Below are positions 12,113-41,168 of a DNA stretch of 48,285 nt, piece by piece. The translations under genes were made by a program, and so were the position numbers. How positions within the stretch are numbered: position 1 is the stretch's first letter; every line of letters starts with the position of its first letter. A model generated the notes under the pieces. That model was not told the origin of the DNA and made no database searches. It saw only the letters and a list, made by a program, of their open reading frames with translations. The DNA is from an uncultured Syntrophaceae bacterium (GTDB lineage Bacteria; Desulfobacterota; Syntrophia; Syntrophales; UBA2210), in assembly GCA_964387765.1 (NCBI GenBank), contig CAYLXS010000002.1:1-48285 (forward strand), read 5' to 3'.

Positions 12113-12205
12113 TAAACTTATCCTCCTCCTGTAATGACTCCAATATTTTTTAAAAAACCGAGGCTTTAGTATCATGTCAATCAAGGCATATAATTGCAAC
12201 CGCAG

Positions 12206-12262
12206 AAAGAAATCTAAAATTTCTCAGTCGTGAAAACTCCTTCGAAATGACAGGGTATCGCT
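12206..12262. repeat. second copy (opposite orientation, one end only) of the family-B element, located inside the methylmalonyl-CoA operon
   Basis: The reverse complement, gtcatttcgaaggagttttcacgactgagaaattttagattt, aligns with 1041..1085. It lies in the 159-bp spacer between the epimerase stop and the carboxyltransferase GTG. Confidence 0.5.
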
Positions 12263-12271
12263 GACACAACT

Positions 12272-12676: not shown

Positions 12677-12809
12677 ATAAAATCTCCTCAAAACAGGACT
12701 ATGCCACGGGTAAGGTCTCTTAATGTGACAAAAATTCGGCTTGTTCTTATTACTTACCACAATGGATTTGACATACAAAGTATTTTTGTAATGGGAAAAT
12801 GGTTTTTAC

Positions 12810-13204: not shown

Positions 13205-14353
13205 GTGAAGAAAGATGTCAGGTTTGTTCAAGGTAATGAAGCTTGTGTCAGGGGAGCTCTTTATGCAGGGCTTGATTTTTTTGCCGGTTACCCGATAACC
13301 CCTTCCACAGAAATTGCAGAGCTGCTCTCGCGTCGTTTGCCCGCGAAGAGAGGAAAATTTATTCAGATGGAGGATGAACTTTCCTCCATGTGTGCCGTAA
13401 TCGGCGCCTCGCTTACAGGGAAAAAGGTTATGACCGCAACCTCGGGACCCGGTTTTTCCTTGAAGCAGGAGGCCCTTGGTTTTGCTGTGATGACTGAAAC
13501 TCCATGCGTTGTCGTTGATGTTCAGCGGGGAGGCCCTTCGACGGGTCTCCCTACAAGTGGAAGCCAGGGAGATGTTATGCAGGCGCGCTGGGGAACCCAT
13601 GGAGATCACGCTATTATCGTTTTAACTGCATCCAACAGCCAGGACGTTTTTGCAATAACGGTTGAGGCCTTTAATCTGGCGGAAACCTTCAGGACACCGG
13701 TTATTTTGCTTCTCGATGAAGTCGTTGGCCATACGAGGGAAAAACTTATGGAGCCGAGGGCAGGGGAGATTAATGTGGTAGATAGATTAAAAACGTCCGT
13801 GCCGGCAGGAACCGATTACCATCCGTATCTGCCAAGGGAGGATGGCCGCCTGCCCATGTCTGATTTCGGAGGTGACCACCGGCATAATGTCACAGGACTG
13901 GCGCATGACATGTGGGGATTTCCTTCAAATAAACCGGATATTGTATATGGGCTGATGCACCATCTGGTAGACAAGATTGAAACCCATGTAAATGAAATCA
14001 CGAGAATAAAGGAATTCTTTGTTGATGATGCGGAATGCCTCCTGATTTCTTATGGGTCCTCCGCCAGAACGGCCCTTCACATTGTAAAAAACAGGAGAGC
14101 ACGGGGTGAAAAACTTGGGCTGTTGGAATTACAGACTCTCTGGCCCTTTCCTGCCAAACTTGTCAGGGAGCGATGTGCCTCTGCGAATCATATAATTGTG
14201 GTAGAAATGAATATGGGCCAGATACTTGGTGAGGTAAAGAAGGCAGTCAAGAATCCTGACAGGGTTTTTCTTGCCAACAGGATCGACGGTGGATTTATTA
14301 CACCTACCAATGTTTTGAATATCATAAGAATCACCCAGGGGAAAGGGGTGTAG
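13205..14353 (+). CDS. 2-oxoacid:ferredoxin oxidoreductase alpha subunit (Oor/Kor-type; substrate not determinable from sequence alone)
   Basis: 382 aa with N-terminal alpha-subunit sequence (GNEACVRGALYAGLDFFAGYPITPSTEI). GTG start at 13205, downstream of AAGGAGG. Confidence 0.85.
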   Translation: MKKDVRFVQGNEACVRGALYAGLDFFAGYPITPSTEIAELLSRRLPAKRGKFIQMEDELSSMCAVIGASLTGKKVMTATSGPGFSLKQEALGFAVMTETPCVVVDVQRGGPSTGLPTSGSQGDVMQARWGTHGDHAIIVLTASNSQDVFAITVEAFNLAETFRTPVILLLDEVVGHTREKLMEPRAGEINVVDRLKTSVPAGTDYHPYLPREDGRLPMSDFGGDHRHNVTGLAHDMWGFPSNKPDIVYGLMHHLVDKIETHVNEITRIKEFFVDDAECLLISYGSSARTALHIVKNRRARGEKLGLLELQTLWPFPAKLVRERCASANHIIVVEMNMGQILGEVKKAVKNPDRVFLANRIDGGFITPTNVLNIIRITQGKGV

Positions 14354-14356
14354 GAA

Positions 14357-15160
14357 ATGGCAGTTAAAGACTATATCAGAAAAAGATTTTTCCCTCATAT
14401 GTTGTGCCCCGGTTGCGGTCACGGCACTATAATGACTGCCATTATCCGTGCGATTGAGAACCTCGGTTTGGAAAAAAATCATATTGCTGTAATTTCGGGT
14501 ATTGGATGTTCTGCCCGTATCAGTGGCTACCTCGATTTTCATACCCTGCATACACTCCACGGCCGGGCCCTTGCCTTTGCCACCGGTGTCAAACTGAGCA
14601 GACCGGAACTTACAGTAATAGTCCCCATGGGGGACGGTGATGCCTGTGCTATCGGAGGTAACCATTTTATCCATGCCGCGAGACGCAATATCGATGTAAC
14701 TGCCATTATCATGAACAACAGCATCTATGGTATGACAGGAGGCCAGTACTCTCCGTTGACAGGATACGGAGAATTTGCCACGACCGCACCCTATGGAAAT
14801 ATAGACCATTCTTTTGATGTGGTTAAGCTTGCAACCGGTGCAGGCGCCTCCTTTGTTGCCAGGACGACAACCTATCACGTCAATGCAATGGTGAAGATAT
14901 TTGAGAAGGCCATTGCGCATAAAGGATTTTCGGTTGTCGAAGTCCTGTCTCAGTGCCCAACACAGTTTGGCCGAAGAAATAACATTCCCAGTGCAGTGGA
15001 TATGCTCAATGGTTATAAAACCAATACGACTCCCATAGGGAGTAAGGAAAAGGAGAAAAACCCCGATCTCATAGAACGAGGCATATTTGTCCAGGAAGAA
15101 CGGCCAGAGTACTGTGCTGAATATGACAAAGTTATAGAAAGGGCGTCTAAAGAAAGGTAA
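14357..15160 (+). CDS. 2-oxoacid:ferredoxin oxidoreductase beta subunit (TPP-binding)
   Basis: 267 aa with CPGCGHG near the N-terminus and the TPP motif GDGD...GGNH...NN. It starts 3 nt after the alpha stop. Confidence 0.85.
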   Translation: MAVKDYIRKRFFPHMLCPGCGHGTIMTAIIRAIENLGLEKNHIAVISGIGCSARISGYLDFHTLHTLHGRALAFATGVKLSRPELTVIVPMGDGDACAIGGNHFIHAARRNIDVTAIIMNNSIYGMTGGQYSPLTGYGEFATTAPYGNIDHSFDVVKLATGAGASFVARTTTYHVNAMVKIFEKAIAHKGFSVVEVLSQCPTQFGRRNNIPSAVDMLNGYKTNTTPIGSKEKEKNPDLIERGIFVQEERPEYCAEYDKVIERASKER

Positions 15161-15163
15161 ATT

Positions 15164-15721
15164 ATGGAAAGACGTAGAATCATTCTCTCCGGTTCAGGCG
15201 GACAGGGTGTGATTACAGCGGCCATTATACTGGCAGAGGCCGCTCTCCTTTATGAAGGGTTGAACGCAGTCCAATCCCAGTCATACGGCCCTGAAGCCAG
15301 AGGAGGAGCGAGCCGTTCAGATATTATCATTTCCGATACGGATATACTGTTTCCCAAGGTTGTCGAGCCAAACATTTTAGTGTGTCTTACTCAGGAGGCA
15401 TATGATAAATTCTCCGGGCTTATCCGACCCGGAGGTCTTCTTCTGACCGACAGCCATTATGTCAAACAAAATGAAAAGGTTGATGCGAAGCAGATAGAAC
15501 TTGATATGTATACAGAGGTTATCGATAAGATCGGGAAGCCAATTGTCTTCAACATATGCATGCTAGGGGTCTTGATTACCTTCTTAAAGATAGTTAGCCC
15601 GAAGTCCATAATGAAGGTACTGGAGGTCAGGATTCCTTCCGCTTTTTTACAGATTAACCAGGATGCCCTCGACCTTGGAATCAAAATGGCTGAAAATTAT
15701 TCAGCAAAGGTGACAGGATAA
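15164..15721 (+). CDS. 2-oxoacid:ferredoxin oxidoreductase gamma subunit
   Basis: 185 aa with the GSGGQGV motif. It starts 3 nt after the beta stop. Confidence 0.85.
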   Translation: MERRRIILSGSGGQGVITAAIILAEAALLYEGLNAVQSQSYGPEARGGASRSDIIISDTDILFPKVVEPNILVCLTQEAYDKFSGLIRPGGLLLTDSHYVKQNEKVDAKQIELDMYTEVIDKIGKPIVFNICMLGVLITFLKIVSPKSIMKVLEVRIPSAFLQINQDALDLGIKMAENYSAKVTG

Positions 15722-15883: not shown

Positions 15884-16510
15884 ATGAAGATGATTATGAC
15901 CGGACAAATATTAAGAGAATTAAAAAATCACGCCCCCTTTACTCTCCTCGGTGCAGTTACCGGTATGGTACTTATGGTTCTCTTTCAGCATGTACCCCAC
16001 ACAACTGCCATGAATATATTCTATGTTCTCCATCCAATACACGTTGTTCTGAGTGCCCTTGTCACGGCATCCATGTATGAACTTCACAAATGTGGAGGGG
16101 TCGGAGGTAAATGCAATATCTGGATTCTGCTGGTTATCGGTTATGCAGGCTCTATAGGCATTGCCACTATAAGTGATTCCCTGATCCCCTATCTTGGCGA
16201 AGTTATGCTTAATATGCCTAACAGGGGTCTTCATATCGGCTTTATCGAAAAGTGGTGGCTGGTAAATCCCCTGGCAATACTGGGAGTAGCCATAGCTTAT
16301 TTCCGGCCGTCAACAAAGTTTCCTCATGCGGGACATGTTCTCCTGAGCACATGGGCCTCAATCTTTCATGTTATCATGGCTGTGGGAGGTACATTAAACT
16401 GGCTGTCGTACTTTGCCGTCTTCATCTTCCTGTTTATTGCCGTCCTGATACCCTGTTGTGTCAGTGACATCGTATTCCCGCTGTTGTTCACGGGAAACTC
16501 AAAAAAATAA
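15884..16510 (+). CDS. hypothetical polytopic membrane protein with several intramembrane His motifs
   Basis: 208 aa with about 6 predicted TM helices. Recurrent His motifs: HVPH, HPIH, LHIG, PHAGH, FHV. I recognise no family. The start is uncertain among ATG 15884, 15890 and 15896. Confidence 0.5.
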   Translation: MKMIMTGQILRELKNHAPFTLLGAVTGMVLMVLFQHVPHTTAMNIFYVLHPIHVVLSALVTASMYELHKCGGVGGKCNIWILLVIGYAGSIGIATISDSLIPYLGEVMLNMPNRGLHIGFIEKWWLVNPLAILGVAIAYFRPSTKFPHAGHVLLSTWASIFHVIMAVGGTLNWLSYFAVFIFLFIAVLIPCCVSDIVFPLLFTGNSKK

Positions 16511-16550
16511 CGGATATATACCCGTTTTCAGGGGAATAAAGCGAAATCCG

Positions 16551-17285
16551 ATGATCATTCAAACTCTCTCAGATGCGAAAATCCTGTCTGAAAAAATCGC
16601 CGGCACATTTGCCGCTCCTCGTTTTTACCGGGAGAAAAAGACTGAGATCCGTGAATCTCTCCTTCTGTTTGAAAACAATCCGATAGTCACAGCATGTATT
16701 GAGATAATAACCGCGAGGGTAAACTTCTCCGGTCATGGATTGTCTCATGCAAGGAAGGTTGCGATAGACGCGGGGACCATAATTCTCATCGAAGGGCGGC
16801 ATACAATGGAAGCGGACAATGTAAATCGCTCTGTTGCCCTGGCACATATAGCCGGCATTCTGCATGACATAAAAAGATCAAGCAAAAATCACGCCCGGCG
16901 GGGAGCTGAAGAAGCGAAGACGATACTCAGGAAATTTGACCTTACAGATAAAGAACAAACGTCTGTGGTCAACGCGATAGGAAATCACGAGGCCTTTCAG
17001 TCATGCACCTCTATTGCCGATCCGGACGCTCAGCTCCTGTCTGATGCCCTGTACGACGCAGATAAGTTTCGGTGGGGCCCCGATAATTTCACGGAAATGA
17101 TATGGGATATATCAGATACCTTTAATATCCCAATTGAAATTTTATTAGACCATTTTCCCGCCGGATTGAAAGCCCTGGAAAAGATCAGGGATACCTTCCG
17201 CACATCTACAGGCAGGGAGTACGGCCCCGACTTCATCGCCCTTGGTCTGAAGATAGGGGAAAGACTATACACAGAACTCCGATAA
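16551..17285 (+). CDS. HD-domain phosphohydrolase superfamily protein
   Basis: H...HD...D pattern (GLSHARKV, GILHDIKR, NHEA, YDADK). The start is taken at ATG 16551 (MIIQTL), after the stop of the preceding gene. The ORF-track start at 16458 overlaps that gene. Confidence 0.65.
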   Translation: MIIQTLSDAKILSEKIAGTFAAPRFYREKKTEIRESLLLFENNPIVTACIEIITARVNFSGHGLSHARKVAIDAGTIILIEGRHTMEADNVNRSVALAHIAGILHDIKRSSKNHARRGAEEAKTILRKFDLTDKEQTSVVNAIGNHEAFQSCTSIADPDAQLLSDALYDADKFRWGPDNFTEMIWDISDTFNIPIEILLDHFPAGLKALEKIRDTFRTSTGREYGPDFIALGLKIGERLYTELR

Positions 17286-19329: not shown

Positions 19330-20328
19330 CTACCAGATCGTTACTATTGGCAGGTCACGCATGGTAACCAGACCGGGCTGTGCCTCAAATACACGCCGCA
19401 CGGCATTAACCGCAATGGCCACTGTCGCGATGTCGCCATTGGTGCCCTTCATCCTGACTTCCAGATCCGGTTTCCCGGTAATCAGGATGATATCTTCATC
19501 CACTTTTTCATCCAGCGCGGCTATGAAGGTAAGGGTCATAAATTCGCCCTCACCGGTATACCCGCGGGCTACCTGCTTAAGTCCCCTTACTTGACCGGGC
19601 TTTACCTCAAAGTAGTCGGTTTGGACTAGAGAATCGGCTACTACCGGTTCGATACTGGATTCATATTTTACCAGATTTCTGCCTAATGTGGAGAAGACCA
19701 TTCCCATGGATTCCGGAAGCCCGACATGTCCCATGCGTCCCGTTTTCGTTTTTGCTCTAAAGTCTTCCACCGTCATTCCTGAACCTATCTTTGCCTGGAA
19801 TGGTCCACGCCGCAACGAGGCATCCTGGCGACGCGTCACGTCGATGCGATCCACCCGCTGACAGATAGCCGTGAGATTAAGGGGCAGTGAATCCATGATA
19901 AAACCGGGATTAACACCCGTGCCCAATACTGTTTTGCCTGCATTTCTAGCGGCAGCGTCTATCCTAGCGGCGGCATCCGGGTGAGCCAGCCAGGGGAACG
20001 AAAGTTCCTCGGATGTTGAGACAATATCCAGGCCGGCTCCCAGGATTTCCATAATCTGAGGCTCAAAAAAAGCAGCAAAGGAGCCGGTAGTGTGAAGCAC
20101 CACATCCGCCTCTGTTTTCTCCAATACCCGGGACAGGTCTTTAACCACGGGGAATCCAACAGGACTGCTGAGACCGATTACCTCACCGATATCCCTGCCT
20201 GTCTTTGTCTCGTCAACCTCCACTCCACCAACCAGTTCTATTCCATCCCGCTCTACAACGTGGCGTGCCATAGCGCTGCCGATAGGTCCCAATCCATATT
20301 GCACCACCCGTATTATCTTACTGCTCAT
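19330..20328 (-). CDS. NAD(P)-dependent amine dehydrogenase / 2,4-diaminopentanoate dehydrogenase-like protein (DapB-like N-terminal Rossmann fold)
   Basis: 332 aa with the N-terminal dinucleotide-binding segment IRVVQYGLGPIGSAMARHVV. Its overall length and layout match my recollection of the DapB-like amine dehydrogenase family. Its ATG overlaps the end of the TRAP permease gene by 11 nt. Confidence 0.55.
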   Translation of the reverse strand: MSSKIIRVVQYGLGPIGSAMARHVVERDGIELVGGVEVDETKTGRDIGEVIGLSSPVGFPVVKDLSRVLEKTEADVVLHTTGSFAAFFEPQIMEILGAGLDIVSTSEELSFPWLAHPDAAARIDAAARNAGKTVLGTGVNPGFIMDSLPLNLTAICQRVDRIDVTRRQDASLRRGPFQAKIGSGMTVEDFRAKTKTGRMGHVGLPESMGMVFSTLGRNLVKYESSIEPVVADSLVQTDYFEVKPGQVRGLKQVARGYTGEGEFMTLTFIAALDEKVDEDIILITGKPDLEVRMKGTNGDIATVAIAVNAVRRVFEAQPGLVTMRDLPIVTIW

Positions 20329-23050
20329 CTTGTTTCTCCTCCAGATTTTTCTTATTTCTCCTGCCTTGAACTATATAAAGAAATGCCAATATGGCGATTC
20401 CTGCCAGATCACTGTAAACCTCCGGGGAAAGAAGCGTAAAGGCGGCAATTGCAGTAAGCGCCCTTTCGAACAGAGTTGACCTACTCCTGAAATATCCTAT
20501 CACTGTAGCTCCAAGGGCCACCACTCCTATCAGCAGCGTTATAAATATATGTGCGAATCTGAGATAGTCAAATGAAGCTTCAGGGTCGAGAAGCGTCGGC
20601 AACCAGAGAATTATGGGTGCAGACACAATAACAAATGGAACGACGAAACCGGCGGAAGCCAGCCCGAAAGCGGTAAATCCGGTCTTAAACGGATTGGCAC
20701 CGGAAATTCCCGATGCCGCATAGGCAGCAAGGGCAACGGGCGGCGTTACGTCTGCGAGAACGGCGTAGAACAGCACAAACATGTGAGATACCAGCGGGTG
20801 AATGCCCCACTGCATAAGCGCCGGAGCGGCTATCATTGATGCTATTATATACTGCGCCGTTGTGGGAATTCCCATGCCGAGGACAAAACATGCTACTGCC
20901 GTAAGTATGAGGGTGAAGAACAACGCGACAGAATTCGCGCTCAGGAGATGGAGTACGTCAAGGTTCATAACTACGGTTGTTATCACATGGGCGAGTTCAA
21001 TGACCGCTGCCGCAAACTTGAGTCCCAGGCCGGTAAGGGTAGTTGCCCCTACAATAAAACCTATACAGGCACACGCCGCCCCGATGGCGAGGGCATTTTT
21101 TGTTCCCAGTTCCAGTGTGTCCATTATATCCGGTATTCTCATTTTACTTTCCCTGTAACAGACCCCTGTAGCAATCACTGTCATCATCGCCCAGAATGAG
21201 CAGAGGGATGGCTCCAGTCCCCATGAAAGCAACCATACCAGGACAAAGGCCGGCAGCAGTCCCGGAAGCCAGGAGGATCTTTCCGTCTTGATGAATGTTC
21301 CGACAAATCCGGCGGCGAGCAGCGCAAACCAGATAATTGAAAAGAGAGAAATCTCTTCCATCGGATTGACCCTTACCAGCACAGACGGAATCGACAGGAA
21401 GATTGTAATCAGCAGCGGATATGTTTTCTTGTGTACCTGGCCTGTTGCAACCGAGTAAATGATTCCCCAGAAGGCGGCCAGAAACGGGCTGCTTCCTGTG
21501 ACCAGGAGATATATAATAATAACAAGGGGTGTCAGCAGCAACCACCCATCTTTTATCACCTTCCACAGTTTGGGCAGCGTCTCTCGTGGAAGCCCCTGCA
21601 GGCCCTGTTTCTTGGCTTCGAGATGCACCATGGTGCCCACAGCAAAGAAATAGAGTATGGCGGGGACAACAGCACACGCGGCAATCTTGATATAGGGTAT
21701 CCCCAGAAATTCCGCCATTATAAATGCTGCAGCGCCCATAATAGGTGGCATCAGTTGACCTCCCGTCGACGAAGCCGCTTCAACGGCTCCGGCAAACTGG
21801 GCAGGATACCCGACACGTCTCATGAGGGGAATCGTAAACGCCCCAGTAGTGACGGTATTCGCTATGGAACTCCCGCTTATGGAACCCATGAATCCGCTGC
21901 TTATAACGGCAACCTTGGCGGGACCACCGGCAGACCACCCGGCAATAGCCATCGCGCAATCCATAAAGAACTGTCCCAGGCCTGTCTTGGATATAAAGAT
22001 CCCGAACAATACAAAATGAAACACAAAAGTGGCTACAACCCCGAGCGGAATACCATAGATGCCCTCCGTGCCAAGATACATGTGCTCAATGATCCGCTGA
22101 ATGGAATACCCCCTGTGCGCGAAAAAACTGAGTCCGGGAATATCAATAAAATAGGGACCCAGATAACAGTTTAGCAGAACAAATAAGGAAATAATGGGAA
22201 GAGGAGGCCCTATACTGCGTCGTGCCCCCTCCAATACCAGTAAAATGGCAAAGGCGCCCACAACAACATCCATCTTGAGAGGAAGCCCCGCGCGTATGAC
22301 CAGACTATTAAATTCCAGAAATATATAAACAGAGATAAAAGATGCGAGAATTGCAAGAAATACATCAAAATAGGGGATATTGTCCTGTTTATAGCCGAAA
22401 TCTGCGCTCTTTACCAGGGCAAGCAGTGCCCTGAACCACTGAACAGCAAAGAGCAATATCATGCTGAAAAATACACCAAACAGGAAAACGCTCCAGAAAA
22501 AGAGGGATATGCCGGAATTATCAAATGATTCTCTAAGGTGCATATACTGAAAACCGAGGCGCGCACCCCAGGCCAGCACGACGATCATTATGGTAAATAT
22601 AACAAAATCTACATATACAAAAATCCTGTTCGATAGGAACTCCCTGCGCTTGAAATAGATGACAAACAGGAATACTGCTGCCGACAGGATAAACGTGGCA
22701 TATCCTGAAAGTTCCAGGATCTCGCGAAACATGGCGCCGGCAATGGCGGCACCGATAATACCGTAGATGACATCATAGACAAGATGTTTCCTGGATTCCG
22801 TCTTGTCTTTTCTTATCGTATAAAGAAAAAACACAAGTGGCAAGACGAAGGCCAAGTGAAAAGCCCTATGTCTCCACTCCTGAAAAACGCCGAAGCCGGC
22901 CGTATAAATATGAAATATCGAAAGAACCTGCGTCATAAAGAAGGCAAGCTTCAGCGTAATGCCTGTGAGCTTTCGGAATCGAAACTCAGGATCGTATTTG
23001 GCAATTTCTTCTATGTCTTCAGAGATAGTCACCGTTTCCTGCGGTTCCAT
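20318..23050 (-). CDS. TRAP transporter fused permease (TAXI-associated, small plus large membrane components fused)
   Basis: 910 aa with more than 18 hydrophobic segments. It is adjacent to the DUF1850-like gene and the TAXI binding-protein gene. SD AGGAGA 8 nt upstream of the ATG. Confidence 0.85.
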   Translation of the reverse strand: MEPQETVTISEDIEEIAKYDPEFRFRKLTGITLKLAFFMTQVLSIFHIYTAGFGVFQEWRHRAFHLAFVLPLVFFLYTIRKDKTESRKHLVYDVIYGIIGAAIAGAMFREILELSGYATFILSAAVFLFVIYFKRREFLSNRIFVYVDFVIFTIMIVVLAWGARLGFQYMHLRESFDNSGISLFFWSVFLFGVFFSMILLFAVQWFRALLALVKSADFGYKQDNIPYFDVFLAILASFISVYIFLEFNSLVIRAGLPLKMDVVVGAFAILLVLEGARRSIGPPLPIISLFVLLNCYLGPYFIDIPGLSFFAHRGYSIQRIIEHMYLGTEGIYGIPLGVVATFVFHFVLFGIFISKTGLGQFFMDCAMAIAGWSAGGPAKVAVISSGFMGSISGSSIANTVTTGAFTIPLMRRVGYPAQFAGAVEAASSTGGQLMPPIMGAAAFIMAEFLGIPYIKIAACAVVPAILYFFAVGTMVHLEAKKQGLQGLPRETLPKLWKVIKDGWLLLTPLVIIIYLLVTGSSPFLAAFWGIIYSVATGQVHKKTYPLLITIFLSIPSVLVRVNPMEEISLFSIIWFALLAAGFVGTFIKTERSSWLPGLLPAFVLVWLLSWGLEPSLCSFWAMMTVIATGVCYRESKMRIPDIMDTLELGTKNALAIGAACACIGFIVGATTLTGLGLKFAAAVIELAHVITTVVMNLDVLHLLSANSVALFFTLILTAVACFVLGMGIPTTAQYIIASMIAAPALMQWGIHPLVSHMFVLFYAVLADVTPPVALAAYAASGISGANPFKTGFTAFGLASAGFVVPFVIVSAPIILWLPTLLDPEASFDYLRFAHIFITLLIGVVALGATVIGYFRSRSTLFERALTAIAAFTLLSPEVYSDLAGIAILAFLYIVQGRRNKKNLEEKQDEQ

Positions 23051-23062
23051 ATAAAGTGTCTC

Positions 23063-23563
23063 CTATGTTTTTGCCCTCAAATACAAAAATTTGATAAATG
23101 GCAGTCTTTCTACAATCACTCGCAAAAGGGTATCTCCCGCGAGAGAGGGGAGTTTAAGCATCTCACCATCTCCCAGCGTCAAGGTGTTGTCGTATTTTTT
23201 ATTGACCCACAGGTTAAGCTCCGGTAATACCCTGTGCATGTCGGAGATACGCAGATGATCCCCATCGATATAAAGCTTTTCATCTCCGGAGAGGGTAGTT
23301 GGAAGGCCGGTATTACAGGAAGAGAAGGTCGTTTCATAAAGAACGATCCTGAAGTTTTTGTCTATTTTGAAATATTCCCGGACAGGGGACAATTCAACCG
23401 AATGAATATATTCGGTTGAAAATATGTAATCTGGGCGGATTATCTGAATAAAGACCGTTCGATTTTTCCTTGCCGCCTCTATTCTCAATACATGACAGGG
23501 AATAAGAGATAAGAGAAAGAGGCCTGCAATAGAAGAGAGAATGATTATTCTTTTCTTATCCAT
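23063..23563 (-). CDS. DUF1850-like small membrane-anchored protein commonly found in TAXI-TRAP operons
   Basis: 166 aa with an N-terminal TM segment. It sits between the TAXI SBP and fused permease genes, as in other TAXI-TRAP loci (assignment by context and memory). No SD is visible upstream. Confidence 0.55.
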   Translation of the reverse strand: MDKKRIIILSSIAGLFLLSLIPCHVLRIEAARKNRTVFIQIIRPDYIFSTEYIHSVELSPVREYFKIDKNFRIVLYETTFSSCNTGLPTTLSGDEKLYIDGDHLRISDMHRVLPELNLWVNKKYDNTLTLGDGEMLKLPSLAGDTLLRVIVERLPFIKFLYLRAKT

Positions 23564-23571
23564 AAAAAAGA

Positions 23572-23597
23572 CCGGGCACCGGAAAACCGGTGCCCGG
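23572..23597 (-). terminator. intercistronic intrinsic terminator/attenuator hairpin after the TAXI binding-protein gene
   Basis: CCGGGCACCGG-uuuu-CCGGUGCCCGG, a perfect 11-bp stem with a tetraloop. On the minus strand it is followed by UCUUUUUU, which abuts the next ATG. Confidence 0.55.
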
Positions 23598-23623
23598 ATA
23601 CCTCCTGAAAGATCAATTTCTTG

Positions 23624-24649
23624 CTATTTTATCAAACCCTTCTCCCTGTAAAATTTCGCTGCGCCCGGATGAAGGGGAATCGCTACGCCGTCAAGCGCTG
23701 TTGCGAGGGTAACATCTTTACCCTTGGAATGGGCCTTCGCCATAATTTCAGCTCCGCTCGGAGCCGCGGCAGCCTTGCCACCCTTTTTACGCAGGACAAA
23801 AGATCCCTTATCCCACAGTGCCTTTGTAAGGTTGTAAACCATCTCTTCCGGGACGGCAGCATCAACAACCCACTGAGCCATCGTGGTGATGGTGGGAATA
23901 TCTGTATCCACCCCTTTGTAAGTGCCCGCAGGGACAATGACCTTTGCATAGAAGGGATGCGCCTTGATGATCTTTGCTATGGTTTTGTCATCCAGCGGAA
24001 CAAGTGTAATATTTGATGTTGTGGCCAGCTCTGTAACGGATGCCGTGGGCCATCCTGCTGTAATGAACGCCACATCGGCCTGCCTGTCTTTCAGCCTTTG
24101 GGTGGCGCCAGCAAAGCTGAGCCAGTCTACACCGGCGAAATTATCATAGGTAAGGCCGAGACCTGAAAGAACCGCCAGGCAGTCCACTTCGGTTCCACTT
24201 CCTCTGTCACCAGGGACCAGCTTTTTCCCCTTCAGATCCTTCGCGTTTTTAATGCCGGCTCCCTCTCTGGCAATAATCTGGATTGTCTCAGGGTAGAGAG
24301 AGGCGATGGCCCTCAGGTTTTTAACGGGTTTTCCATCAAACTGCTCGACCCCGTTATACGCATAGTAGGCAACATTGTTCTGCACGAACCCCGATTCGAT
24401 CTGGTGTGTCTTTATAAGGTTGCAGTTCGCGACAGACGCGTTACCCGACTGGGCGGTAACAATAACATTGGGGAGTTTGTTGGACAGTGCCTGAGCCAGA
24501 ACCCCCCCCAGGGGATAGTAAGTGCCCCCCGTGCCACCCGTGGCAATCGCGAAGAAACTTTTCTTCGCTGCAAACGAAGGACCGATAAAGACCATTGACA
24601 AAGCCACAATCAGCACAACAAACAGTACAAGGTTTCTCTTCTTAAACAT
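23624..24649 (-). CDS. TAXI-family TRAP transporter solute-binding protein
   Basis: Signal peptide MFKKRNLVLFVVLIVALSMVFIGPSFA followed by the TAXI hallmark ATGGTGGTYYPLGG. The start is taken at ATG 24649 with SD GAAAGGAGAGG. Confidence 0.85.
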   Translation of the reverse strand: MFKKRNLVLFVVLIVALSMVFIGPSFAAKKSFFAIATGGTGGTYYPLGGVLAQALSNKLPNVIVTAQSGNASVANCNLIKTHQIESGFVQNNVAYYAYNGVEQFDGKPVKNLRAIASLYPETIQIIAREGAGIKNAKDLKGKKLVPGDRGSGTEVDCLAVLSGLGLTYDNFAGVDWLSFAGATQRLKDRQADVAFITAGWPTASVTELATTSNITLVPLDDKTIAKIIKAHPFYAKVIVPAGTYKGVDTDIPTITTMAQWVVDAAVPEEMVYNLTKALWDKGSFVLRKKGGKAAAAPSGAEIMAKAHSKGKDVTLATALDGVAIPLHPGAAKFYREKGLIK

Positions 24650-24717
24650 AACGCCTCTCCTTTCAAATAGTTTTAACAGCCTGACATTTCTTTTCAACAG
24701 AACGCACATTATTCTAA

Positions 24718-26378: not shown

Positions 26379-27713
26379 TCACAACTTTTTCTCCAGGATC
26401 TGAGCTGCTGTATGAATCATATCCCACGCCCCGCTAAAATATGGGCTGTAGGCAAGATCCATGTAGCCGATCTCGTCAAGTCCTATCCCTGACCACAAAC
26501 ATGCGGACAGGACGTTAATACGGCTCACCGCTCCGCTCTGTCCCACCGCCTGCGCGCCCAGCAATTTCCCCGAACCCCTGTCCGCGATCAGCTTGAGTCC
26601 AAGTTTCTGCCCTATATTCATGGAGCGCGCCACAGGACTTCCCCAGATTACGTTGCCTGCGGGAGAATATCCGCTCTGTTCCGCCATTTTCTCATCAAGG
26701 CCGGTCATGGCGACTTCCAGGTCAAATATCTTAAAGGATTGTGCGCCGACAACCCCGGGAAATACCAGGGGATAGCCGGCAATATTACGACCGGCTACTC
26801 GGCCCTGTTTGTTCGCCATATCCCCCAGAGGGATATACACCCATTTTTTGCTCACCCGGTTATATGACTCACAGCAGTCACCCACGGCGAATATCTCCTC
26901 GCGTGATGTATGCTGTGAAGGATCCACCTCGATGGCGCCGGATTTGCCTGTCGTAAGACCCGCTTCGCGTGCCAGTCGGGTATTTGGCTTTACACCCAGG
27001 GCGAATATGATAATGTCGGTCTCTATCCTCCCTTTGTCGGTAATCAAACACAGTCGGGCATCTGAGCCTTTCTCAACGGCAACCGGAGAATTATGGGCGA
27101 TAAAGGATACCCCGTTTTTTGTAAGCTCTTCCAGTACCATCCCGGAGAATACCGGGTCCCATTTTTTGACAGGAAGTTCACCCCTGTACACGATACTGGT
27201 CTCAAGATCGAGATTCCTCAGGGCTTCGCTCATCTCCATGGCGATAAACCCGGCTCCGACTATCACCGCCTTGCGGCAGTCGTTCTCCTTTATATATTTC
27301 CTGATATTGATGCCATCTCGCAGGTTTTTCAGTGTAAAGATTCCATCCTGCATCGTGCCCGGTATATCGGGTAAGGTTGCTTCAGCACCGGTCCCCATGA
27401 CAAGGACATCGTATGACAGCCTTTCGCCGCCCGTCAGCAGAATCTCGCCCCTGTCGGCCTCGATACCCTCAACATGGGTATTGAGTCTCACTTTTATTCC
27501 CGTCTCTTCAAATTTTTCGGGGGTTCTCGCGATAAGCTTTTTTGGATCTTTGATTACATCGCCGATGTAATAGGGCATGGGTCAGGCGGCATATGAAACG
27601 AATTCACCCCTCTCCAGCATCGTTACATCCAGGGACGGATCTCTTCTCTTGGCCTCCGCGGCTGCGGAAGGTCCCCCCGCACCACCTCCAACTACTACCA
27701 GTTTTTTGTTCAT
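26379..27713 (-). CDS. CoA-disulfide reductase / NADH oxidase family flavoprotein with an in-frame TGA (selenocysteine, codon 44) replacing the redox-active Cys; 444 codons
   Basis: The ORF track reports only codons 46-444 (26379..27578). Hand translation upstream gives ATG(27713) MNKKLVVVGGGAGGPSAAAEAKRRDPSLDVTMLERGEFVSYAA-TGA(27584..27582)-PMPYYIGDVI in the same frame. This adds the missing GxGxxG FAD motif and the family active-site context (S-[FY]-A-x-C-x-[LM]-P-Y-Y-I-G). The ATG overlaps the lgt stop (ATGA). A SECIS-like hairpin starts 11 nt after the TGA. Confidence 0.85.
27553..27571 (-). promoter_or_regulatory. candidate bacterial SECIS hairpin
   Basis: mRNA: UGA-CCCAUGCCCU-AUUACAUC-GGC-GAUGUAAU. 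The stem is 7-8 bp and the apical loop contains GG, about 18 nt after the UGA. That distance is within the range I recall for bacterial SECIS elements. Confidence 0.6.
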
Positions 27714-28561
27714 CCGTTTTCTCCTCGCCCTTTTTTTATAAGAATGACGGCAATACCGAAGATAATCATCGTAATACAGAGTATCTGCCCCATGCTGAGC
27801 ATCCCCGCGATAAGGCCCACTTGGGGATCCGGTTGTCTTAAAAATTCAATACAAAAACGCACAGATCCATAACCGATAAGATACAGGCACAATAGAGATC
27901 CGTCAAACCAGCTTTTTTTTCTGACACTCCACAGGATCGCGAAGAGAAATATGCCTTCAAAAAAGGCCTCATAAAGCTGGGATGGGTGCCGAAGCCGGAA
28001 AAGAGGGTCCAGAGGGAAATACATGCCCCACCATACATCCGTTACGCGCCCGTACAGCTCCCCATTTAGAAAATTGCCGATTCTTCCGAATGTATACCCG
28101 AGCGGTATCGCGGGGCAGAAAAGATCCGCGAACCGCCAGAAATTTATCTGGCGCCGACGGCAGAACCAGACAGATGCCACGACAATACCCGCAAGACCAC
28201 CATGGTACGACATGCCACTGATTCCAACAAACCGGAACCCGCCGGAAATGTCAAAGGGAAATATAATGTAAAGGGGATGCGCCATGTAGTATTCAAGATT
28301 ATAGAAGAGAACATATCCCAGCCGCGCCCCTATCAGAAGGCCCGCTATTGCCCATACAAAATAGTCCTGGATAGTTTCCTTAGACCAGTCAATGTTCTCG
28401 TCTTTTATTCTGTAGATGACAAGCAAATAGACAATGAAAAAGGCGACAAGGTACATAAGCCCGTAATAACGGATCTGAAAGGATCCTGCCTCCAGAAACG
28501 CCGGGTTGATATGTTCCGGAATATGTTGCCAGAAATTGACTATTTGGTTCACTGTAACCAC
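27710..28561 (-). CDS. lgt: prolipoprotein diacylglyceryl transferase
   Basis: Lgt signatures: IRYYGLMYLVAF and GRIGNFLNGELYGR. GTG start at 28561, or alternatively GTG 28552 with an AAGGTGG SD. Confidence 0.9.
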   Translation of the reverse strand: MVTVNQIVNFWQHIPEHINPAFLEAGSFQIRYYGLMYLVAFFIVYLLVIYRIKDENIDWSKETIQDYFVWAIAGLLIGARLGYVLFYNLEYYMAHPLYIIFPFDISGGFRFVGISGMSYHGGLAGIVVASVWFCRRRQINFWRFADLFCPAIPLGYTFGRIGNFLNGELYGRVTDVWWGMYFPLDPLFRLRHPSQLYEAFFEGIFLFAILWSVRKKSWFDGSLLCLYLIGYGSVRFCIEFLRQPDPQVGLIAGMLSMGQILCITMIIFGIAVILIKKGRGENG

Positions 28562-28604: not shown

Positions 28605-28799
28605 TCAGGTAAAAGGGGACCCTCCCCCTCCCGAACAGGATTGACAGGATCCCTGCAAGCCGACAGGGGAGGACACGACCTTATCGGCATTTTTCTCGCC
28701 ACATCCGGGACATTCTATATCGCTGTCATTATCACTCGCGAACCGGATTAATTCAAACTTATTACCACAGTCTTTGCAGACGTATTCATAAATCGGCAT
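28605..28799 (-). CDS. FmdB-family zinc-ribbon protein
   Basis: MPIYEYVCKDCGNKFE ... CPGCG gives two CxxC pairs. The start is taken at ATG 28799 with SD GAGGAG. Gly/Ser-rich C-terminal tail. Confidence 0.75.
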   Translation of the reverse strand: MPIYEYVCKDCGNKFELIRFASDNDSDIECPGCGEKNADKVVSSPVGLQGSCQSCSGGGGSPFT

Positions 28800-28824
28800 T
28801 TTTCTTCTCCTCAAGAATATTGAT

Positions 28825-29790
28825 TTAGTATGCCTGTCCCTTCAGTTCATCAACATGCAGCGAAGCATTGTGCGCAGCCGTCGCCCCATCGCCGCAGGCG
28901 GTTACTACCTGCCTCAGGGACTTGCTGATGCAATCTCCACATGCGAAGATACCTTCGGCCGATGTTCTCATGTCTCTATCTGTAATGATATACCCTTCCT
29001 TATCCAGATCGACAACTCCCTTGATAAAAGCCGTATTCGGTACAAGACCAACAAAGATAAAGACACCATCGACAGGAAGCTCTTCATGACGATCGGAGGT
29101 TTTTATATTTCTTATCCTTACCCCGGTTACAACATCCTCCCCCAAGATCTCCTCTACGGTGGAATCCCAGGCAAATGTGATTTTTTCGTTGGCAAAGGCT
29201 CGCTGCTGAAGTATGGCCGTCGCGCGCAGGCGGTCTCTTCTGTGAATCACTGTAACCTTTGAGGCAAATTTCGTCAAATAGAGGGCCTCCTGGATGGCGG
29301 TGTCTCCGCCTCCTACTACGGCAACTTCACTGCCCCTGTAGAAGGGAGCATCGCAGGTGGCACAGTATGATATTCCTCTGCCGATAAATTCCTGCTCCCC
29401 CGCTACTCCCAGACTGCTCCAGGCTGCTCCTGAAGAAATAATAATAGAAAAAGTCCGATAGACATTATCATCGGTTATAATCTCCCATTCTTCAACATCT
29501 CCTGATTTTTCTCTGTTTATGCGGTTCGCCTGTTCCGGTCTGATCTCCAAACCAAACGAGATTGCCTGCTTTTTGAACGTATCGTTAAGTTCAAAACCGC
29601 TGATCTCAGAAACACCGGGGTAATTTTCTATCATATCCGTCATGGTTATCTGGCTGGCCTGGGCATTTCCCTCCAGCAACAGAACTTTCATGTCGGCCCT
29701 GGCCGCGTACAGTCCCGCGGTAAGTCCACCAGGTCCTCCTCCCACAATAATGGTATCGTATGTATCCTCCGGTATGTTTATATCAGGCAT
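28825..29790 (-). CDS. trxB: thioredoxin-disulfide reductase
   Basis: 321 aa with FAD motif IVGGGPGGLTA, redox-active CATC (ISYCATCDAPFY) and NADPH motif VVGGGDTA. SD GGAAGGAAGGTG. Confidence 0.9.
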   Translation of the reverse strand: MPDINIPEDTYDTIIVGGGPGGLTAGLYAARADMKVLLLEGNAQASQITMTDMIENYPGVSEISGFELNDTFKKQAISFGLEIRPEQANRINREKSGDVEEWEIITDDNVYRTFSIIISSGAAWSSLGVAGEQEFIGRGISYCATCDAPFYRGSEVAVVGGGDTAIQEALYLTKFASKVTVIHRRDRLRATAILQQRAFANEKITFAWDSTVEEILGEDVVTGVRIRNIKTSDRHEELPVDGVFIFVGLVPNTAFIKGVVDLDKEGYIITDRDMRTSAEGIFACGDCISKSLRQVVTACGDGATAAHNASLHVDELKGQAY

Positions 29791-30258: not shown

Positions 30259-31704
30259 TCATCCCTTGATACAGCCGACGGCTCTGAGCCTCGCGACTTT
30301 TCTGGATAGACCAGCCCGATGGACAATGTTTACAACGTCTTCTATATCTTTATATGCGTCGGGCATTTCCTCGCGAATGGTTTTTTTACCCGCAGCCATA
30401 ACCACAATGCCCCTGTCGGCCATCTCTTTTTCTATTGATCTGTTTTTGCTCTCCTTCATCGCCCTGCCACGACTCATCACACGCCCGGCACCGTGACAGG
30501 TACTGCCGAATGTCTCCTCAAAGGCCTTCTCTGCTCCCGCAAGTACATAGGATCCTGTCCCCATATCCCCCGGTATCAGTACCGGTTGGCCCACCTCGCG
30601 ATAAACATCCGGCAGGGCAGGATGATGTGGGGGAAACGCCCTTGTGGCTCCCTTGCGGTGCACGCACACCTTCTTTATCACACCAGCGACAGGAAATTCT
30701 TCTATCTTTGCAATATTATGAGATACATCGTAGACTAGTCGCATTCCCATTTCGCGTGGAGACATCTGCAGTGTCTTTTCAAAAACCTGCCTGGTCCAGT
30801 GCATCAGTATCTGTCTGTTCGCCCAGGCATAATTGGCGGCGCATGCCATGGCAGACATATATTCCTTTCCCTCATCAGAGGCAATATACGCGCAGGCGAG
30901 TTGCCGGTCAGGCAGCGGAAAAATCATTCTGCTGCTGAGCTTGACCATCCTCGAGAGATAGTCGTCGCATACCTGGTATCCAAAACCCCGTGATCCTGTG
31001 TGAATGGCGACGGCAACCTGGCCCTCTGCCATCAGTCCGAATGTGGAGGCAATTTTCCTGTCAAAAATCTCCTCCACAACCTCTATCTCCAGGAAGTGAT
31101 TCCCGGACCCAAGTGTTCCCAGCTGTCTCCTGCCCCTCTCAAGGGCCCGCTCGCTCACGCAGGAGGGGTCCGCCCCATCCATCCTGCCGCGATCCTCAAT
31201 AGTCATCAGATCATCACCGGAACCGTACCCATGTTTCACCGCCCATCCGGCTCCTTCCCGCAATACTCTTTTTTCTTCATCCACAGAAAGCTTAACGGAG
31301 CTTTCAGATCCCACTCCGGCAGGTATTCCCCTGAAAAGGGCGATAACAAGATCTTTCACTCTGTTTTTGATTTCGTCGAACTGGAGATTTGTTACCATGA
31401 GGCGAACACCGCAGTTTATGTCATAACCTACCCCTCCCGGAGAAACAATCCCATCCTCCATATCGAAAGCAGCAACACCACCTATTGGAAAACCATAACC
31501 CCAGTGAATATCAGGCATGGCCAGGGAATGTCTTACTATGCCAGGAAGGTGTGCCACATTGGCAACCTGTCTGAGGCTTTCATCTTTTTCTACACTTTTC
31601 ATCATTCGTTCATCGGCATAGATAATTCCGGGAACACGCATGCCACCCGTAGGAGGTATGATCCAGCGGAATTCGTCAAGTTTCTCAACTCTGATATCAG
31701 ACAT
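30259..31704 (-). CDS. rtcB: RNA ligase RtcB (3'-phosphate/5'-hydroxyl RNA-splicing ligase)
   Basis: RtcB motifs: GYDINCGVR, GSGNHFLE, HTGSRGFG and CHGAGR (guanylyl-His region). The start is taken at ATG 31704 (MSDIRVEKL), overlapping the archease stop by 8 nt. Confidence 0.9.
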   Translation of the reverse strand: MSDIRVEKLDEFRWIIPPTGGMRVPGIIYADERMMKSVEKDESLRQVANVAHLPGIVRHSLAMPDIHWGYGFPIGGVAAFDMEDGIVSPGGVGYDINCGVRLMVTNLQFDEIKNRVKDLVIALFRGIPAGVGSESSVKLSVDEEKRVLREGAGWAVKHGYGSGDDLMTIEDRGRMDGADPSCVSERALERGRRQLGTLGSGNHFLEIEVVEEIFDRKIASTFGLMAEGQVAVAIHTGSRGFGYQVCDDYLSRMVKLSSRMIFPLPDRQLACAYIASDEGKEYMSAMACAANYAWANRQILMHWTRQVFEKTLQMSPREMGMRLVYDVSHNIAKIEEFPVAGVIKKVCVHRKGATRAFPPHHPALPDVYREVGQPVLIPGDMGTGSYVLAGAEKAFEETFGSTCHGAGRVMSRGRAMKESKNRSIEKEMADRGIVVMAAGKKTIREEMPDAYKDIEDVVNIVHRAGLSRKVARLRAVGCIKG

Positions 31705-32140
31705 CAAAAATAACCCTTCCAATCCATCTTCCTGAAATCTTTCTTATCTTCACACGGTGGTATGTAACCGCCTTTATCTCGATATTCATACGGTGTCTCC
31801 CCCGTGCAAACGGTTCCCCCCTCGCTGTCCCTTCTATATGAAAGTTGTCCATCCCGGAAACCGTAAATTCTTTTAACAACAAGCCTTCACCGTAGTACAT
31901 GTACAATATTTCTCTGAGAAAATTTACCAGAAGTTCCCCCAAATCACCACCTTCAGCGAAAATTTTCTTTTCTTTTCTTACACGTACAAGGCTTACGTCG
32001 GTCATTATATCAAAAACGGCAAAGGCTGAATTGCAAAAGAGTTCCTCCTTATTTATTCCATATATCTCTACTCCCAGATCGGCCGTATGATCAAATACCC
32101 TGTAAGGCGGGAATGCTGCCTGTCCTCTATTTTCATTCAT
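31697..32140 (-). CDS. archease (RtcB activator family)
   Basis: Archease N-terminal signature FDHTADLGVEIYG plus the C-terminal KAVTYH. The start is uncertain: ATG 32140 gives 147 aa, and the ORF-track start at 32215 is a TTG. Confidence 0.75.
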   Translation of the reverse strand: MNENRGQAAFPPYRVFDHTADLGVEIYGINKEELFCNSAFAVFDIMTDVSLVRVRKEKKIFAEGGDLGELLVNFLREILYMYYGEGLLLKEFTVSGMDNFHIEGTARGEPFARGRHRMNIEIKAVTYHRVKIRKISGRWIGRVIFDV

Positions 32141-32427
32141 ACCGGATACCAGCTTTTTTAAAGTATAGAGAGAAATGGAAGCGGGGATAGGGCGATTTTT
32201 GAAATCCAGATTCAAATCGGAACTTCAGCCTGACTACAAGAGTAGCATAGATTTTCGGCAAACTCTAACCGGGAAGATAAAGATGGGGGCATTTTCTTCT
32301 ATGTGAGATCTTCAAAAATGATGAGATAAAACTGGCAAAAGTCCGGGCATGGTTCGGCCAGCTTACCTGGGTTGTGGAAAACGCAAAAATTGTGAAAAGG
32401 GCATTTCTAAATGAAAATCAATTAATT

Positions 32428-33330: not shown

Positions 33331-35814
<2,484 letters not shown>

Positions 35815-35832
35815 GATTTTTAAAAACCTTTC

Positions 35833-35903
35833 TATCTATTGAAGCTCCCCGCAATCCCGCATAAGCGGGGTCTTCGCTTTTGCTCCGACAAGTTGCGGAA
35901 AAT
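35833..35903 (-). repeat. copy 2 of the roughly 70-nt two-hairpin element, in the gyrA 5' leader
   Basis: Aligned by hand to 29831..29900 (61 of 71 positions identical). It has the same orientation relative to the downstream gene, and its proximal end lies 18 nt from the gyrA ATG. Confidence 0.75.
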
Positions 35904-35928
35904 CTCCGACTGTTTAGTAAGTTAGAAA

Positions 35929-35958
35929 TTATTTTCTGTGTTTTCCGGCAGAAAATAA
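35929..35958. other. AT-rich perfect 10-bp inverted repeat (TTATTTTCTG-N10-CAGAAAATAA) in the gyrB-gyrA spacer
   Basis: Seen directly. On the minus strand it is followed by TTTCTAAC. It could be a weak gyrB terminator or a protein-binding palindrome. Confidence 0.35.
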
Positions 35959-36071
35959 CTTCGTTAACGCACTTATCCCGATTATAGGGATTAAGGAAAA
36001 TGTTTATTTTTTACTCGCTGTTCAATACAGGGTGTTTTTAATGGCATGAATGCTCTTATTCGTCTCTGAAA

Positions 36072-39606
<3,535 letters not shown>

Positions 39607-39710
39607 TTTTTCACCTATTCCTTTAAAAGTTTATTGGTTTATAAAACTAGTAGTAATAGTAGGCAGTGTTAATTTGTTAATATAATCTATTTAACCTAAG
39701 TAATTTTTTA

Positions 39711-39739
39711 ACTATATCTCCATAAATTACACTTGACAA
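39711..39739 (-). promoter_or_regulatory. candidate sigma70 promoter for dnaN in the dnaA-dnaN spacer
   Basis: On the minus strand: TTGTCA (39739..39734), a 17-nt spacer, then TATAGT (39716..39711), about 105 nt upstream of the dnaN ATG. Confidence 0.45.
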
Positions 39740-39755
39740 GATGTTAAAACCCAGT

Positions 39756-41087: not shown

Positions 41088-41102
41088 CCTTTATAAACAA
41101 TG

Positions 41103-41123
41103 TTATCAACAAGTGTTGATAGG
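41103..41123. promoter_or_regulatory. two imperfect, inverted DnaA-box-like 9-mers just upstream of dnaA
   Basis: TTATCAACA (41103..41111) and TGTTGATAG (41115..41123). They have one and two mismatches respectively to TTATCCACA / TGTGGATAA. They lie in the 80-bp parB-dnaA spacer and are plausibly dnaA autoregulatory sites. Confidence 0.45.
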
Positions 41124-41168
41124 TTTTACGGCATACAGAAAAAACGCCTCTTTATAGAAGGAGACATC

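Follow-up and report, generated by a model that had tools for sequence, protein, structure and literature searches.

Does a TGA triplet standing in the frame of a flavoprotein gene end translation, or is it read as selenocysteine (Sec)? The question is raised by positions 26379..27713 (minus strand) of a stretch of 48,285 nucleotides from an uncultured Syntrophaceae bacterium (contig CAYLXS010000002.1, assembly GCA_964387765.1), which is referred to below, at its full length, as the window. Very probably this region is one gene, coding for a 444-residue selenoprotein of the coenzyme A (CoA)-disulfide reductase (CoADR)/NADH oxidase type, in which Sec replaces the single catalytic Cys. Such a selenoprotein had been suggested in a preliminary description of the DNA, and the alignment of the catalytic Cys, the comparison with known selenocysteine insertion sequence (SECIS) elements and the TGA-bearing orthologues all speak for it.

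Reading frame and catalytic position

The frame runs from the ATG at 27713..27711 to its own TGA stop at 26381..26379 and comprises 444 sense codons if the UGA at codon 44 (27584..27582), its sole interruption, is counted among them. Conceptual translation from ATG 27713 gives residues 1-43 as MNKKLVVVGGGAGGPSAAAEAKRRDPSLDVTMLERGEFVSYAA, and after the TGA the frame runs on as PMPYYIGDVIKD, which begins with PMPYYIGDVI. In the mechanical list of open reading frames (ORFs) the gene is split into a 43-residue ORF (27582..27713) and a 399-residue ORF (26379..27578), the latter starting from Met46 (ATG, 27576..27578). Re-reading of the sequence reproduced the frame, the position of the TGA and the overlap of ATG 27713 with the stop codon of the upstream gene lgt (shared letters ATGA, 27713..27710), as they had been described at the outset; the ORF list and the translation likewise bear out that a start at Met46 removes the GxGxxG motif together with the redox-active residue. 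This motif, the GGGAGG of residues 9-14 (27672..27689), which binds flavin adenine dinucleotide (FAD), belongs to the 43 N-terminal codons dropped by the ORF callers (27585..27713).

Translation from ATG 27713, previously argued from the lgt overlap, is supported also by a Shine-Dalgarno sequence, GAGGAG (27721..27726), which was read from the sequence 7 nt 5' of this codon, and in related loci the start likewise lies approx. 43 codons 5' of the TGA. No Shine-Dalgarno-like motif could be read ahead of ATG 27578, and since this ATG is moreover not conserved among the relatives it was judged not to be a real start. TGA is the ordinary terminator of 12 of the 36 well-supported genes of the window, this gene included, and a reassignment of the genetic code was therefore rejected. 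When the window was scanned for pairs of ORFs in the same frame, no other credible TGA-interrupted gene was found, the pairs being separate genes or antisense shadows.

For the profile searches the conceptual protein was scored with Cys substituted at residue 44. The Pfam domains Pyr_redox_2 (residues 4-286), Pyr_redox and Pyr_redox_dim were all found above their cut-offs. The NCBIfam CoADR model NF007123 gave 383.4 bits (cut-off 458), profile positions 1-440 of 444 being covered; TIGR03385 (377 bits, cut-off 578.8), NF010037 (223.5, cut-off 394) and NF046103, the model of the streptococcal H2O-forming NADH oxidase (230.1, cut-off 600), remained below threshold as well. The best match in the PDB was the 'NADH oxidase' of Thermus thermophilus, 6ruz (E = 3.9e-88, residues 1-438), followed by NoxA-3 of Archaeoglobus fulgidus (6pfz) and by three CoADR structures from Pyrococcus (5l1n, 4fx9 and 3kd9). 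Since the homology to solved structures extends over the whole length (E = 4e-88), the fold is already settled. The family hallmarks are present: GGGAGG, in the extended frame only, the second dinucleotide-binding motif GAGFIA (residues 153-158, 27240..27257), which forms the NAD(P)H site within Pyr_redox (residues 148-220) and whose G153 and G155 are invariant, and the C-terminal dimerisation domain. By these matches the gene product is a FAD-dependent pyridine nucleotide-disulfide oxidoreductase of the CoADR/NADH oxidase/NADH peroxidase branch. Because its scores lie under the NCBIfam equivalog cut-offs it was filed as CoADR-like rather than as CoADR proper, and its substrate may be assigned with low confidence.

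The claim that the TGA occupies exactly the position of the catalytic Cys was upheld by the alignments. In the three printed alignments, to 6ruz, 6pfz and 5l1n, the UGA column coincides with the catalytic Cys (VSYGAC-GLPY, VSLGRC-GLPYY and VSHAPC-GIPY, respectively), and the alignment offsets put residue 44 on Cys42 of the Enterococcus NADH peroxidase (query residue 4 on chain residue 2) and on Cys43 of the Staphylococcus aureus CoADR (query 4 on chain 3), these two Cys being the ones that are redox-active there. Homologues of full length (443-450 residues, 54-68% identity) also carry Cys at this column (FVSYAACPMPYYIGDVIKD), and in P0031, P0049, P0050, P0063 and P0077 (56-68% identity) this Cys stands within the same flanking peptide, FVSYAACPMPYY. 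There is no second Cys inside the motif around Sec44, and no CxxxxC disulfide. The Cys-type CoADR/'NADH oxidase' structures (6ruz, 6pfz, 5l1n, 4fx9, 3kd9 and the S. aureus CoADR 1yqz) align with the protein from end to end (E values from 4e-88 to 5e-50), and the two GxGxxG motifs, the dimerisation domain and the catalytic column in V-S-x-x-x-[C/U]-x-x-P-Y are common to all of them; however, the residue is here Sec and not Cys, and it is followed by Pro rather than by Gly.

The NADH peroxidase (Npx) of Enterococcus faecalis (1joa/1npx) and the NADH oxidases (Nox) of lactic acid bacteria have the fold in common with it, and their one redox-active residue occupies the corresponding position; query residues 4-438 were aligned to Npx residues 2-440 (E = 3e-57). 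The match is weaker, as the Nox model gave 230 bits and the CoADR model 383. In Npx and the H2O-forming Nox enzymes Cys42 cycles through a sulfenic acid, and a Sec-SeOH cycle in the present protein would be the selenium analogue of this chemistry. Where Npx has its catalytic His10, the present protein, like the CoADRs, presumably has an Ala (Ala12 of GGGAGG). Judged by the profile scores, by the nearest solved structures and by the first motif, GGGAGG without His, a CoADR-like enzyme is more likely than one of the Nox/Npx type of the lactic acid bacteria.

Conservation of the UGA codon and of the hairpin

Orthologous loci were collected from 80 species-representative genomes, i.e. metagenome-assembled genomes (MAGs) labelled Syntrophales, Syntrophaceae, Smithella, Syntrophus or Deltaproteobacteria, and from a separate metagenome scan which was seeded with Cys-form proteins and in which one of the two search patterns demanded Cys. 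A search for relatives with TGA or a Cys codon at the same place had been recommended, and it was clearly in favour of Sec: codon 44 was TGA in 76 of the 80 genome loci and TGT or TGC in the other 4, and among the 76 resolved metagenome loci TGA was found in 73 and Cys in 3, despite the Cys-requiring pattern. Altogether 149 TGA loci stand against 7 Cys loci (137 against 6 when unique genes are counted). In addition, over a 174-nt probe that includes the TGA, no difference was seen between six assemblies made independently for this organism from different samples, so a sequencing or assembly error is excluded. Other carriers of the TGA form include chromosome OY761459.1 (L006, 84% identity), OY764159.1 (L074) and CAXXKT010000001.1 (L013).

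The 43-codon N-terminal segment was open and conserved in every motif-matching locus. The ratio of nonsynonymous to synonymous substitution rates (dN/dS) was approx. 0.15 over codons 3-43 (274 pairs with unsaturated dS), which means purifying selection upstream of the TGA, and therefore the segment is translated. On both flanks of the TGA the amino acids are conserved with synonymous variation. At position 46, 20 of the 137 unique TGA-form genes code for Thr, Ile, Val or Leu, thus a restart at Met46 is not a conserved option.

The protein search yielded dozens of homologues with 62-100% identity, each of them 398-405 residues long, covering exactly 90% of the query and starting with MPYYIG or MTYYIG. 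The gene callers at NCBI, JGI, ENA and Logan all give this truncated form of 398-405 residues (P0002-P0047 and others), and in relatives that lack Met at this position 46 the calls are still shorter, e.g. P0028 with 369 residues (chromosome OY761459.1). Several of the NCBI entries are deposited as 'FAD-dependent oxidoreductase' and some of the JGI entries as 'NADPH-dependent 2,4-dienoyl-CoA reductase/sulfur reductase-like enzyme'. The public entries for this protein and for dozens of its relatives, from which the FAD site and the catalytic residue are missing, merit re-annotation as 444-residue selenoproteins.

The Cys forms (L047, L014, L038, L079, L157, L159 and L168) are nested among the Sec forms in at least four lineages. 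In L047 (TGC, 3130-3177) the hairpin described below is intact and the sequence is 83% identical to its TGA neighbours, suggesting a recent Sec-to-Cys replacement, and in the Syntrophus-type Cys forms the stem is lost. Four relatives have U-L-x-P instead of U-P-M-P. By the locus counts given above, the Sec form is the norm of this enzyme in Syntrophales-type syntrophs.

A hairpin with a GG-containing loop, beginning 11 nt after the UGA, had been noticed in the first inspection, and it is indeed present, with a measured stem of 8 bp. This core hairpin (27553..27571, minus strand) lies within codons Y48-Y49-I50-G51-D52-V53-I54 and was delimited by folding, by synonymous entropy and by the contrast between Sec and Cys forms. 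It has the stem AUUACAUC/GAUGUAAU and the loop GGC (5' arm ATTACATC, 27571..27564; loop, 27563..27561; 3' arm GATGTAAT, 27560..27553), the stem begins with the 11th nt downstream of the UGA and the distance from the UGA to the loop is 18 nt. Across the relatives it takes the form AUUACAUC-GGN-GAUGUAAU, and the RNAalifold consensus is the same 8-bp hairpin.

Selection on the hairpin is seen in the codons that encode it. The synonymous entropy was calculated for 73 unique TGA-form coding sequences (CDS), over 107 degenerate columns with an amino-acid conservation of 95% or more. If the TGA column is disregarded, the entropy was zero at five columns only, Tyr48 UAU, Tyr49 UAC, Ile50 AUC, Asp52 GAU and Val53 GUA, which are those of the hairpin stem. 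The loop codon Gly51 is free at its third base (GGU, GGC, GGG, GGA). Nearly all other conserved codons gave 0.7-2.3 bits, lower values being found at Q303 (0.11) and Q438 (0.31).

An intact stem was found in 136 of the 137 unique TGA-form genes, and in 134 of them all its bases are the same. In the three variants, GUA->GUG and GAU->GGU keep the pairing (A-U to G-U), and GAU->AAU opens the loop-closing pair. Of the six unique Cys-form genes four have stem-breaking synonymous changes (UAC->UAU together with GAU->GAC, or GUA->GUC), and the difference in stem intactness between TGA and Cys forms is significant (Fisher exact p = 4.4e-6). The 137 sequences with their near-invariant minimal hairpin, together with the natural Cys-form controls, offer a dataset for the study of the minimal bacterial SECIS.

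Like the SECIS elements of Escherichia coli fdhF and fdnG and the bacterial SECIS (bSECIS) model, the hairpin lies in the CDS right after the UGA, at 18 nt, and has a small GG apical loop and an 8-bp upper stem. The bSECIS model has four criteria; the first three cover a loop of 3-9 nt, a stem of 4-16 bp, G in the first two loop positions and a UGA-loop distance of 16-37 nt, and the fourth is a minimum free energy of at most -7.5 kcal/mol (PMC13188914). The 3-nt GGC loop, the 8-bp stem and the 18-nt spacing agree with the first three.

Probable selenocysteine insertion and the alternative readings

On the selenoprotein reading, translation would begin at ATG 27713, served by its own GAGGAG Shine-Dalgarno sequence and coupled to the lgt stop, and the ribosome would be recoded at the UGA of codon 44, the signal being the bacterial SECIS hairpin 11-29 nt downstream. 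We infer that the insertion of Sec at UGA44 is SelB-dependent: following the established bacterial mechanism, SelB carrying Sec-tRNA(Sec) would recognise the GG-containing apical loop and deliver Sec. By homology, NAD(P)H would then reduce the FAD, and the reduced FAD would reduce the oxidised selenium centre. In an enzyme acting on CoA disulfide or persulfide this centre would be a Sec-Se-S-CoA selenenylsulfide, in a peroxidase or oxidase a Sec-SeOH selenenic acid. The family thus lends itself to a clean comparison of selenium with sulfur in a single-cysteine flavoenzyme, i.e. of Sec-Se-S-CoA or Sec-SeOH with Cys-S-S-CoA or Cys-SOH.

The caution that such a family might already be known proved right. 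Kryukov and Gladyshev (2004) already counted an 'NADH oxidase' among the predicted selenoprotein families of prokaryotes, and it was recorded in Geobacter metallireducens (WP_011365774.1), as of 2006 in one bacterial genome sequence (PMC1794560), and also in the Olavius delta-1 symbiont. Reviews from 2022 and 2026 list a FAD-dependent oxidoreductase (CoADR/NADH oxidase) selenoprotein family, which in the latter is 'predicted with high confidence'. The searchable literature contained no biochemical characterisation of a Sec-containing CoADR, Nox or Npx, nor any account of selenium detected in such a protein by 75Se labelling or mass spectrometry. The present protein shares with the listed family the fold family, the Sec in place of the N-terminal redox-active Cys and the SECIS directly downstream, and TIGR03385-type homology is present in it at a sub-threshold score; it differs in that the Sec form is dominant in at least 76 species-level Syntrophales-type genomes and occurs in two genomic contexts. 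The gene belongs to a known kind of predicted selenoprotein, and its extension is a well-supported correction of the annotation.

Several observations weigh against the assignment as a selenoprotein of this kind. The CoADR models of NCBIfam score under their equivalog cut-offs (383 against 458, 377 against 578.8), so any assignment of a substrate is tentative. The motif reads U-P-M-P, whereas U-G-x-P is listed for the known family; the column is the same, the comparison being made by the published motif. The suggestion that the hairpin is a SECIS element held for its loop, stem and spacing and for the stem preserved in 136 of 137 TGA forms, but not for its energy: with a 3-nt loop and a short AU-rich stem, the hairpin of the window reached -5.7 kcal/mol (ViennaRNA) instead of the -7.5 of the bSECIS model, the weakest of 146 relatives, in a comparison that is approximate because bSECISearch computes the energy in its own way. 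It also folds no better than shuffled sequences (-5.7 to -6.2 kcal/mol, z = +1.1). In view of this weak single-sequence fold the significance of the hairpin has to be judged from the comparative evidence only. When the UGA and the following 45 nt were folded, the energy threshold was passed by 94% of the 146 TGA-form relatives, and in most of them an additional lower stem (CCC...GGG or AGG) stabilises the hairpin. RNAalifold detected no double-sided covariation, since the stem never varies, and the synonymous entropy and the contrast of Sec and Cys forms were used instead. At gathering thresholds, Rfam found in the window only a tRNA-Val and no match to a SECIS RNA family.

To the same side belongs the search for the Sec machinery. 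It was carried out by tblastn with E. coli SelA, SelB and SelD and by ARAGORN, and neither tRNA-Sec nor selA, selB or selD was detected in the window or in the approx. 0.5 Mb of the 80 related loci. In the window ARAGORN gave only the tRNA-Val, and on contigs of the same organism no sel genes were found within 10 kb past either window end. A molybdopterin oxidoreductase encoded beyond the window has a Cys ligand (QDVCHAP) and not Sec, which is uninformative on the use of Sec. At the level of the lineage, and from the literature only, the use of Sec appears to be supported: Syntrophus aciditrophicus has SelD and 19 selenoproteins (PMC1794560), and selA, selB, selC and selD are present in a composite Smithella genome (PMC5389517).

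The literature on the same lineage also supplies the basis of the alternatives which survive best. In delta-proteobacteria, including the composite Smithella genome, selC* genes for tRNA-Sec-like tRNA-Cys have been reported, a second selB copy adjoins selC* in Syntrophobacterales and Desulfobacterales, and the insertion of Cys at UGA via selC* was demonstrated in E. coli (PMC5389517). UGA44 with its SECIS could be a facultative Sec/Cys site, served by Sec-tRNA(Sec)/SelB as well as by selC*/SelB*; we give this a small chance. If it were true, the selenium supply would decide whether a selenenylsulfide- or a disulfide-forming CoADR-type enzyme is made, and the near-invariance of the 19-nt hairpin (134 of 137, down to approx. 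55% protein identity) would then be due to the hairpin having to suit two elongation factors.

More generally, the UGA might be read by a selC* tRNA-Cys having the anticodon UCA, perhaps aided by a SelB* of its own, so that residue 44 would be Cys, or Sec or Cys according to the selenium supply. The conservation of the hairpin does not discriminate here, since a SECIS-like hairpin would be needed too. However, every selC*-bearing genome also had the full Sec apparatus and the UCA anticodon occurs in only some of the selC* species (PMC5389517), and neither selC* nor tRNA-Sec was seen in the window or in the related loci examined. Moreover, the UGA and the SECIS have been kept in 137 unique genes, although Cys is one mutation away and has been adopted in 6 unique genes of at least four lineages, which would be difficult to account for if Cys served equally well. 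Such a reading of UGA44 is thus improbable.

Still less can be said for a genuine stop, with a 399-residue protein made from Met46, with or without a 43-residue peptide. This is what the gene callers report in every public assembly, and in the window an ATG does follow two codons past the TGA. However, the 399-residue product would be devoid of the FAD-binding GxGxxG and of the redox-active residue, ATG 27578 has no Shine-Dalgarno sequence and is replaced in 20 of the 137 genes, the 43 upstream codons stay in frame with a dN/dS of 0.15 down to approx. 55% identity, and the Cys-form relatives are continuous 444-residue proteins. A genuine stop is accordingly very unlikely.

The hairpin might also have been conserved for a reason other than Sec, e.g. 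as a ribosome pause or as a regulatory protein or RNA site, the UGA being read through by some other route. A stem as weak as -5.7 kcal/mol, which is invariant instead of covarying, is what a sequence-specific binding site would give. But this invariance goes with the TGA and decays in the Cys forms, both stem substitutions seen keep the pairing as G-U, and the hairpin fits the bSECIS model (PMC13188914) in its position, in the size of its loop, in the GG of the loop and in the distance of 18 nt, so that such a role seems most improbable. Finally, a lone in-frame stop near the 5' end does resemble a nonsense mutation or a base-call error, but a sequencing or assembly error or a recent pseudogene is hardly to be credited when the same TGA recurs in the six assemblies and in 149 further loci of different species and metagenomes, and both its flanks are under purifying selection.

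Genomic context and other features of the window

The selenoprotein gene is the last of a co-directional string on the minus strand, trxB-fmdB-lgt-SecCoADR. Its direct upstream neighbour, lgt (27710..28561), codes for prolipoprotein diacylglyceryl transferase (Pfam LGT and TIGR00544, both above cut-offs) and is translationally coupled to it. Before lgt lies a gene for an FmdB-family CxxC zinc-ribbon protein (28605..28814), which was recognised by profile matches and found in 19 related loci, and the string opens with trxB, coding for thioredoxin-disulfide reductase (28825..29790; TIGR01292, 373 bits against a cut-off of 343). Among 76 related genome loci lgt is directly upstream and co-directional in 45, and trxB follows further upstream in the same direction in 39, often with the FmdB gene between them, as in the window. 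The composition of this string suggests a thiol-redox housekeeping role in the strictly anaerobic Syntrophales. Directly upstream of trxB, an overlapping pair of genes codes for the RtcB RNA ligase and its activator archease (window 30259-32215), and rtcB was observed upstream of trxB in 10 related loci.

A second arrangement occurs at many of the other loci; it was confirmed in L029, L046, L056, L068 and L074, where a C_GCAxxG_C_C 'putative redox-active protein' is encoded upstream. In L056 (953-7330), L074, L046 and L068 the order is a PAS-PAS-LuxR regulator, the C_GCAxxG_C_C protein, the Sec flavoprotein, an HpaB-family protein and a methylmalonyl-CoA-mutase-type gene; the HpaB-family neighbour is probably of the 4-hydroxybutyryl-CoA-dehydratase type. 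L029 shares the upstream C_GCAxxG_C_C gene only, its upstream partner being a TonB-dependent receptor, and no HpaB-family protein is encoded downstream. The homologues in the second context form the clade that reads DVIKDY/DVIKES. The MAG JAPLJM01 has a copy in each context (L028 and L064), and the copies of the two contexts look like paralogues.

In the segment approx. 6-10 kb past the left end of the window (L169, 16729-20888), another member of the wider enzyme class is encoded, a 470-residue pyridine nucleotide-disulfide oxidoreductase with a dimerisation domain. The molybdopterin oxidoreductase gene mentioned above adjoins it, and a Y1 transposase gene is next to both.

The window itself is origin-proximal chromosome: at 33331-43583 the minus strand carries, one after another, gyrA, gyrB, dnaN, dnaA, parB, parA and rsmG (gidB); oriC could lie in the dnaA-parB intergenic region (41088-41168) or upstream of dnaN. 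At 7440-12778 there is a methylmalonyl-CoA pathway cluster, which consists of a MeaB GTPase, a fused B12-dependent methylmalonyl-CoA mutase (709 residues), a carboxyltransferase (540 residues) and a glyoxalase-fold protein, probably the methylmalonyl-CoA epimerase, and which is in keeping with the propionate-type metabolism found in Syntrophales or Smithella.

Two overlapping plus-strand ORFs of 208 and 275 residues (15884-17285) had no Pfam match at E <= 1e-5. They are flanked by an operon for a 2-oxoacid:ferredoxin oxidoreductase (13205-15721) and by a 604-residue radical-SAM gene on the opposite strand, and in related contigs genes of 244 and 208 residues, without a family, are called at the site of the pair. 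A TAXI-type TRAP transporter set occupies 19330-24709, with an NMT1_3 binding protein, a DUF1850 protein and a 910-residue fused DctM-type permease. The next gene resembles that of 2,4-diaminopentanoate dehydrogenase, which hints at the uptake and fermentation of amino acids of the ornithine or lysine type.

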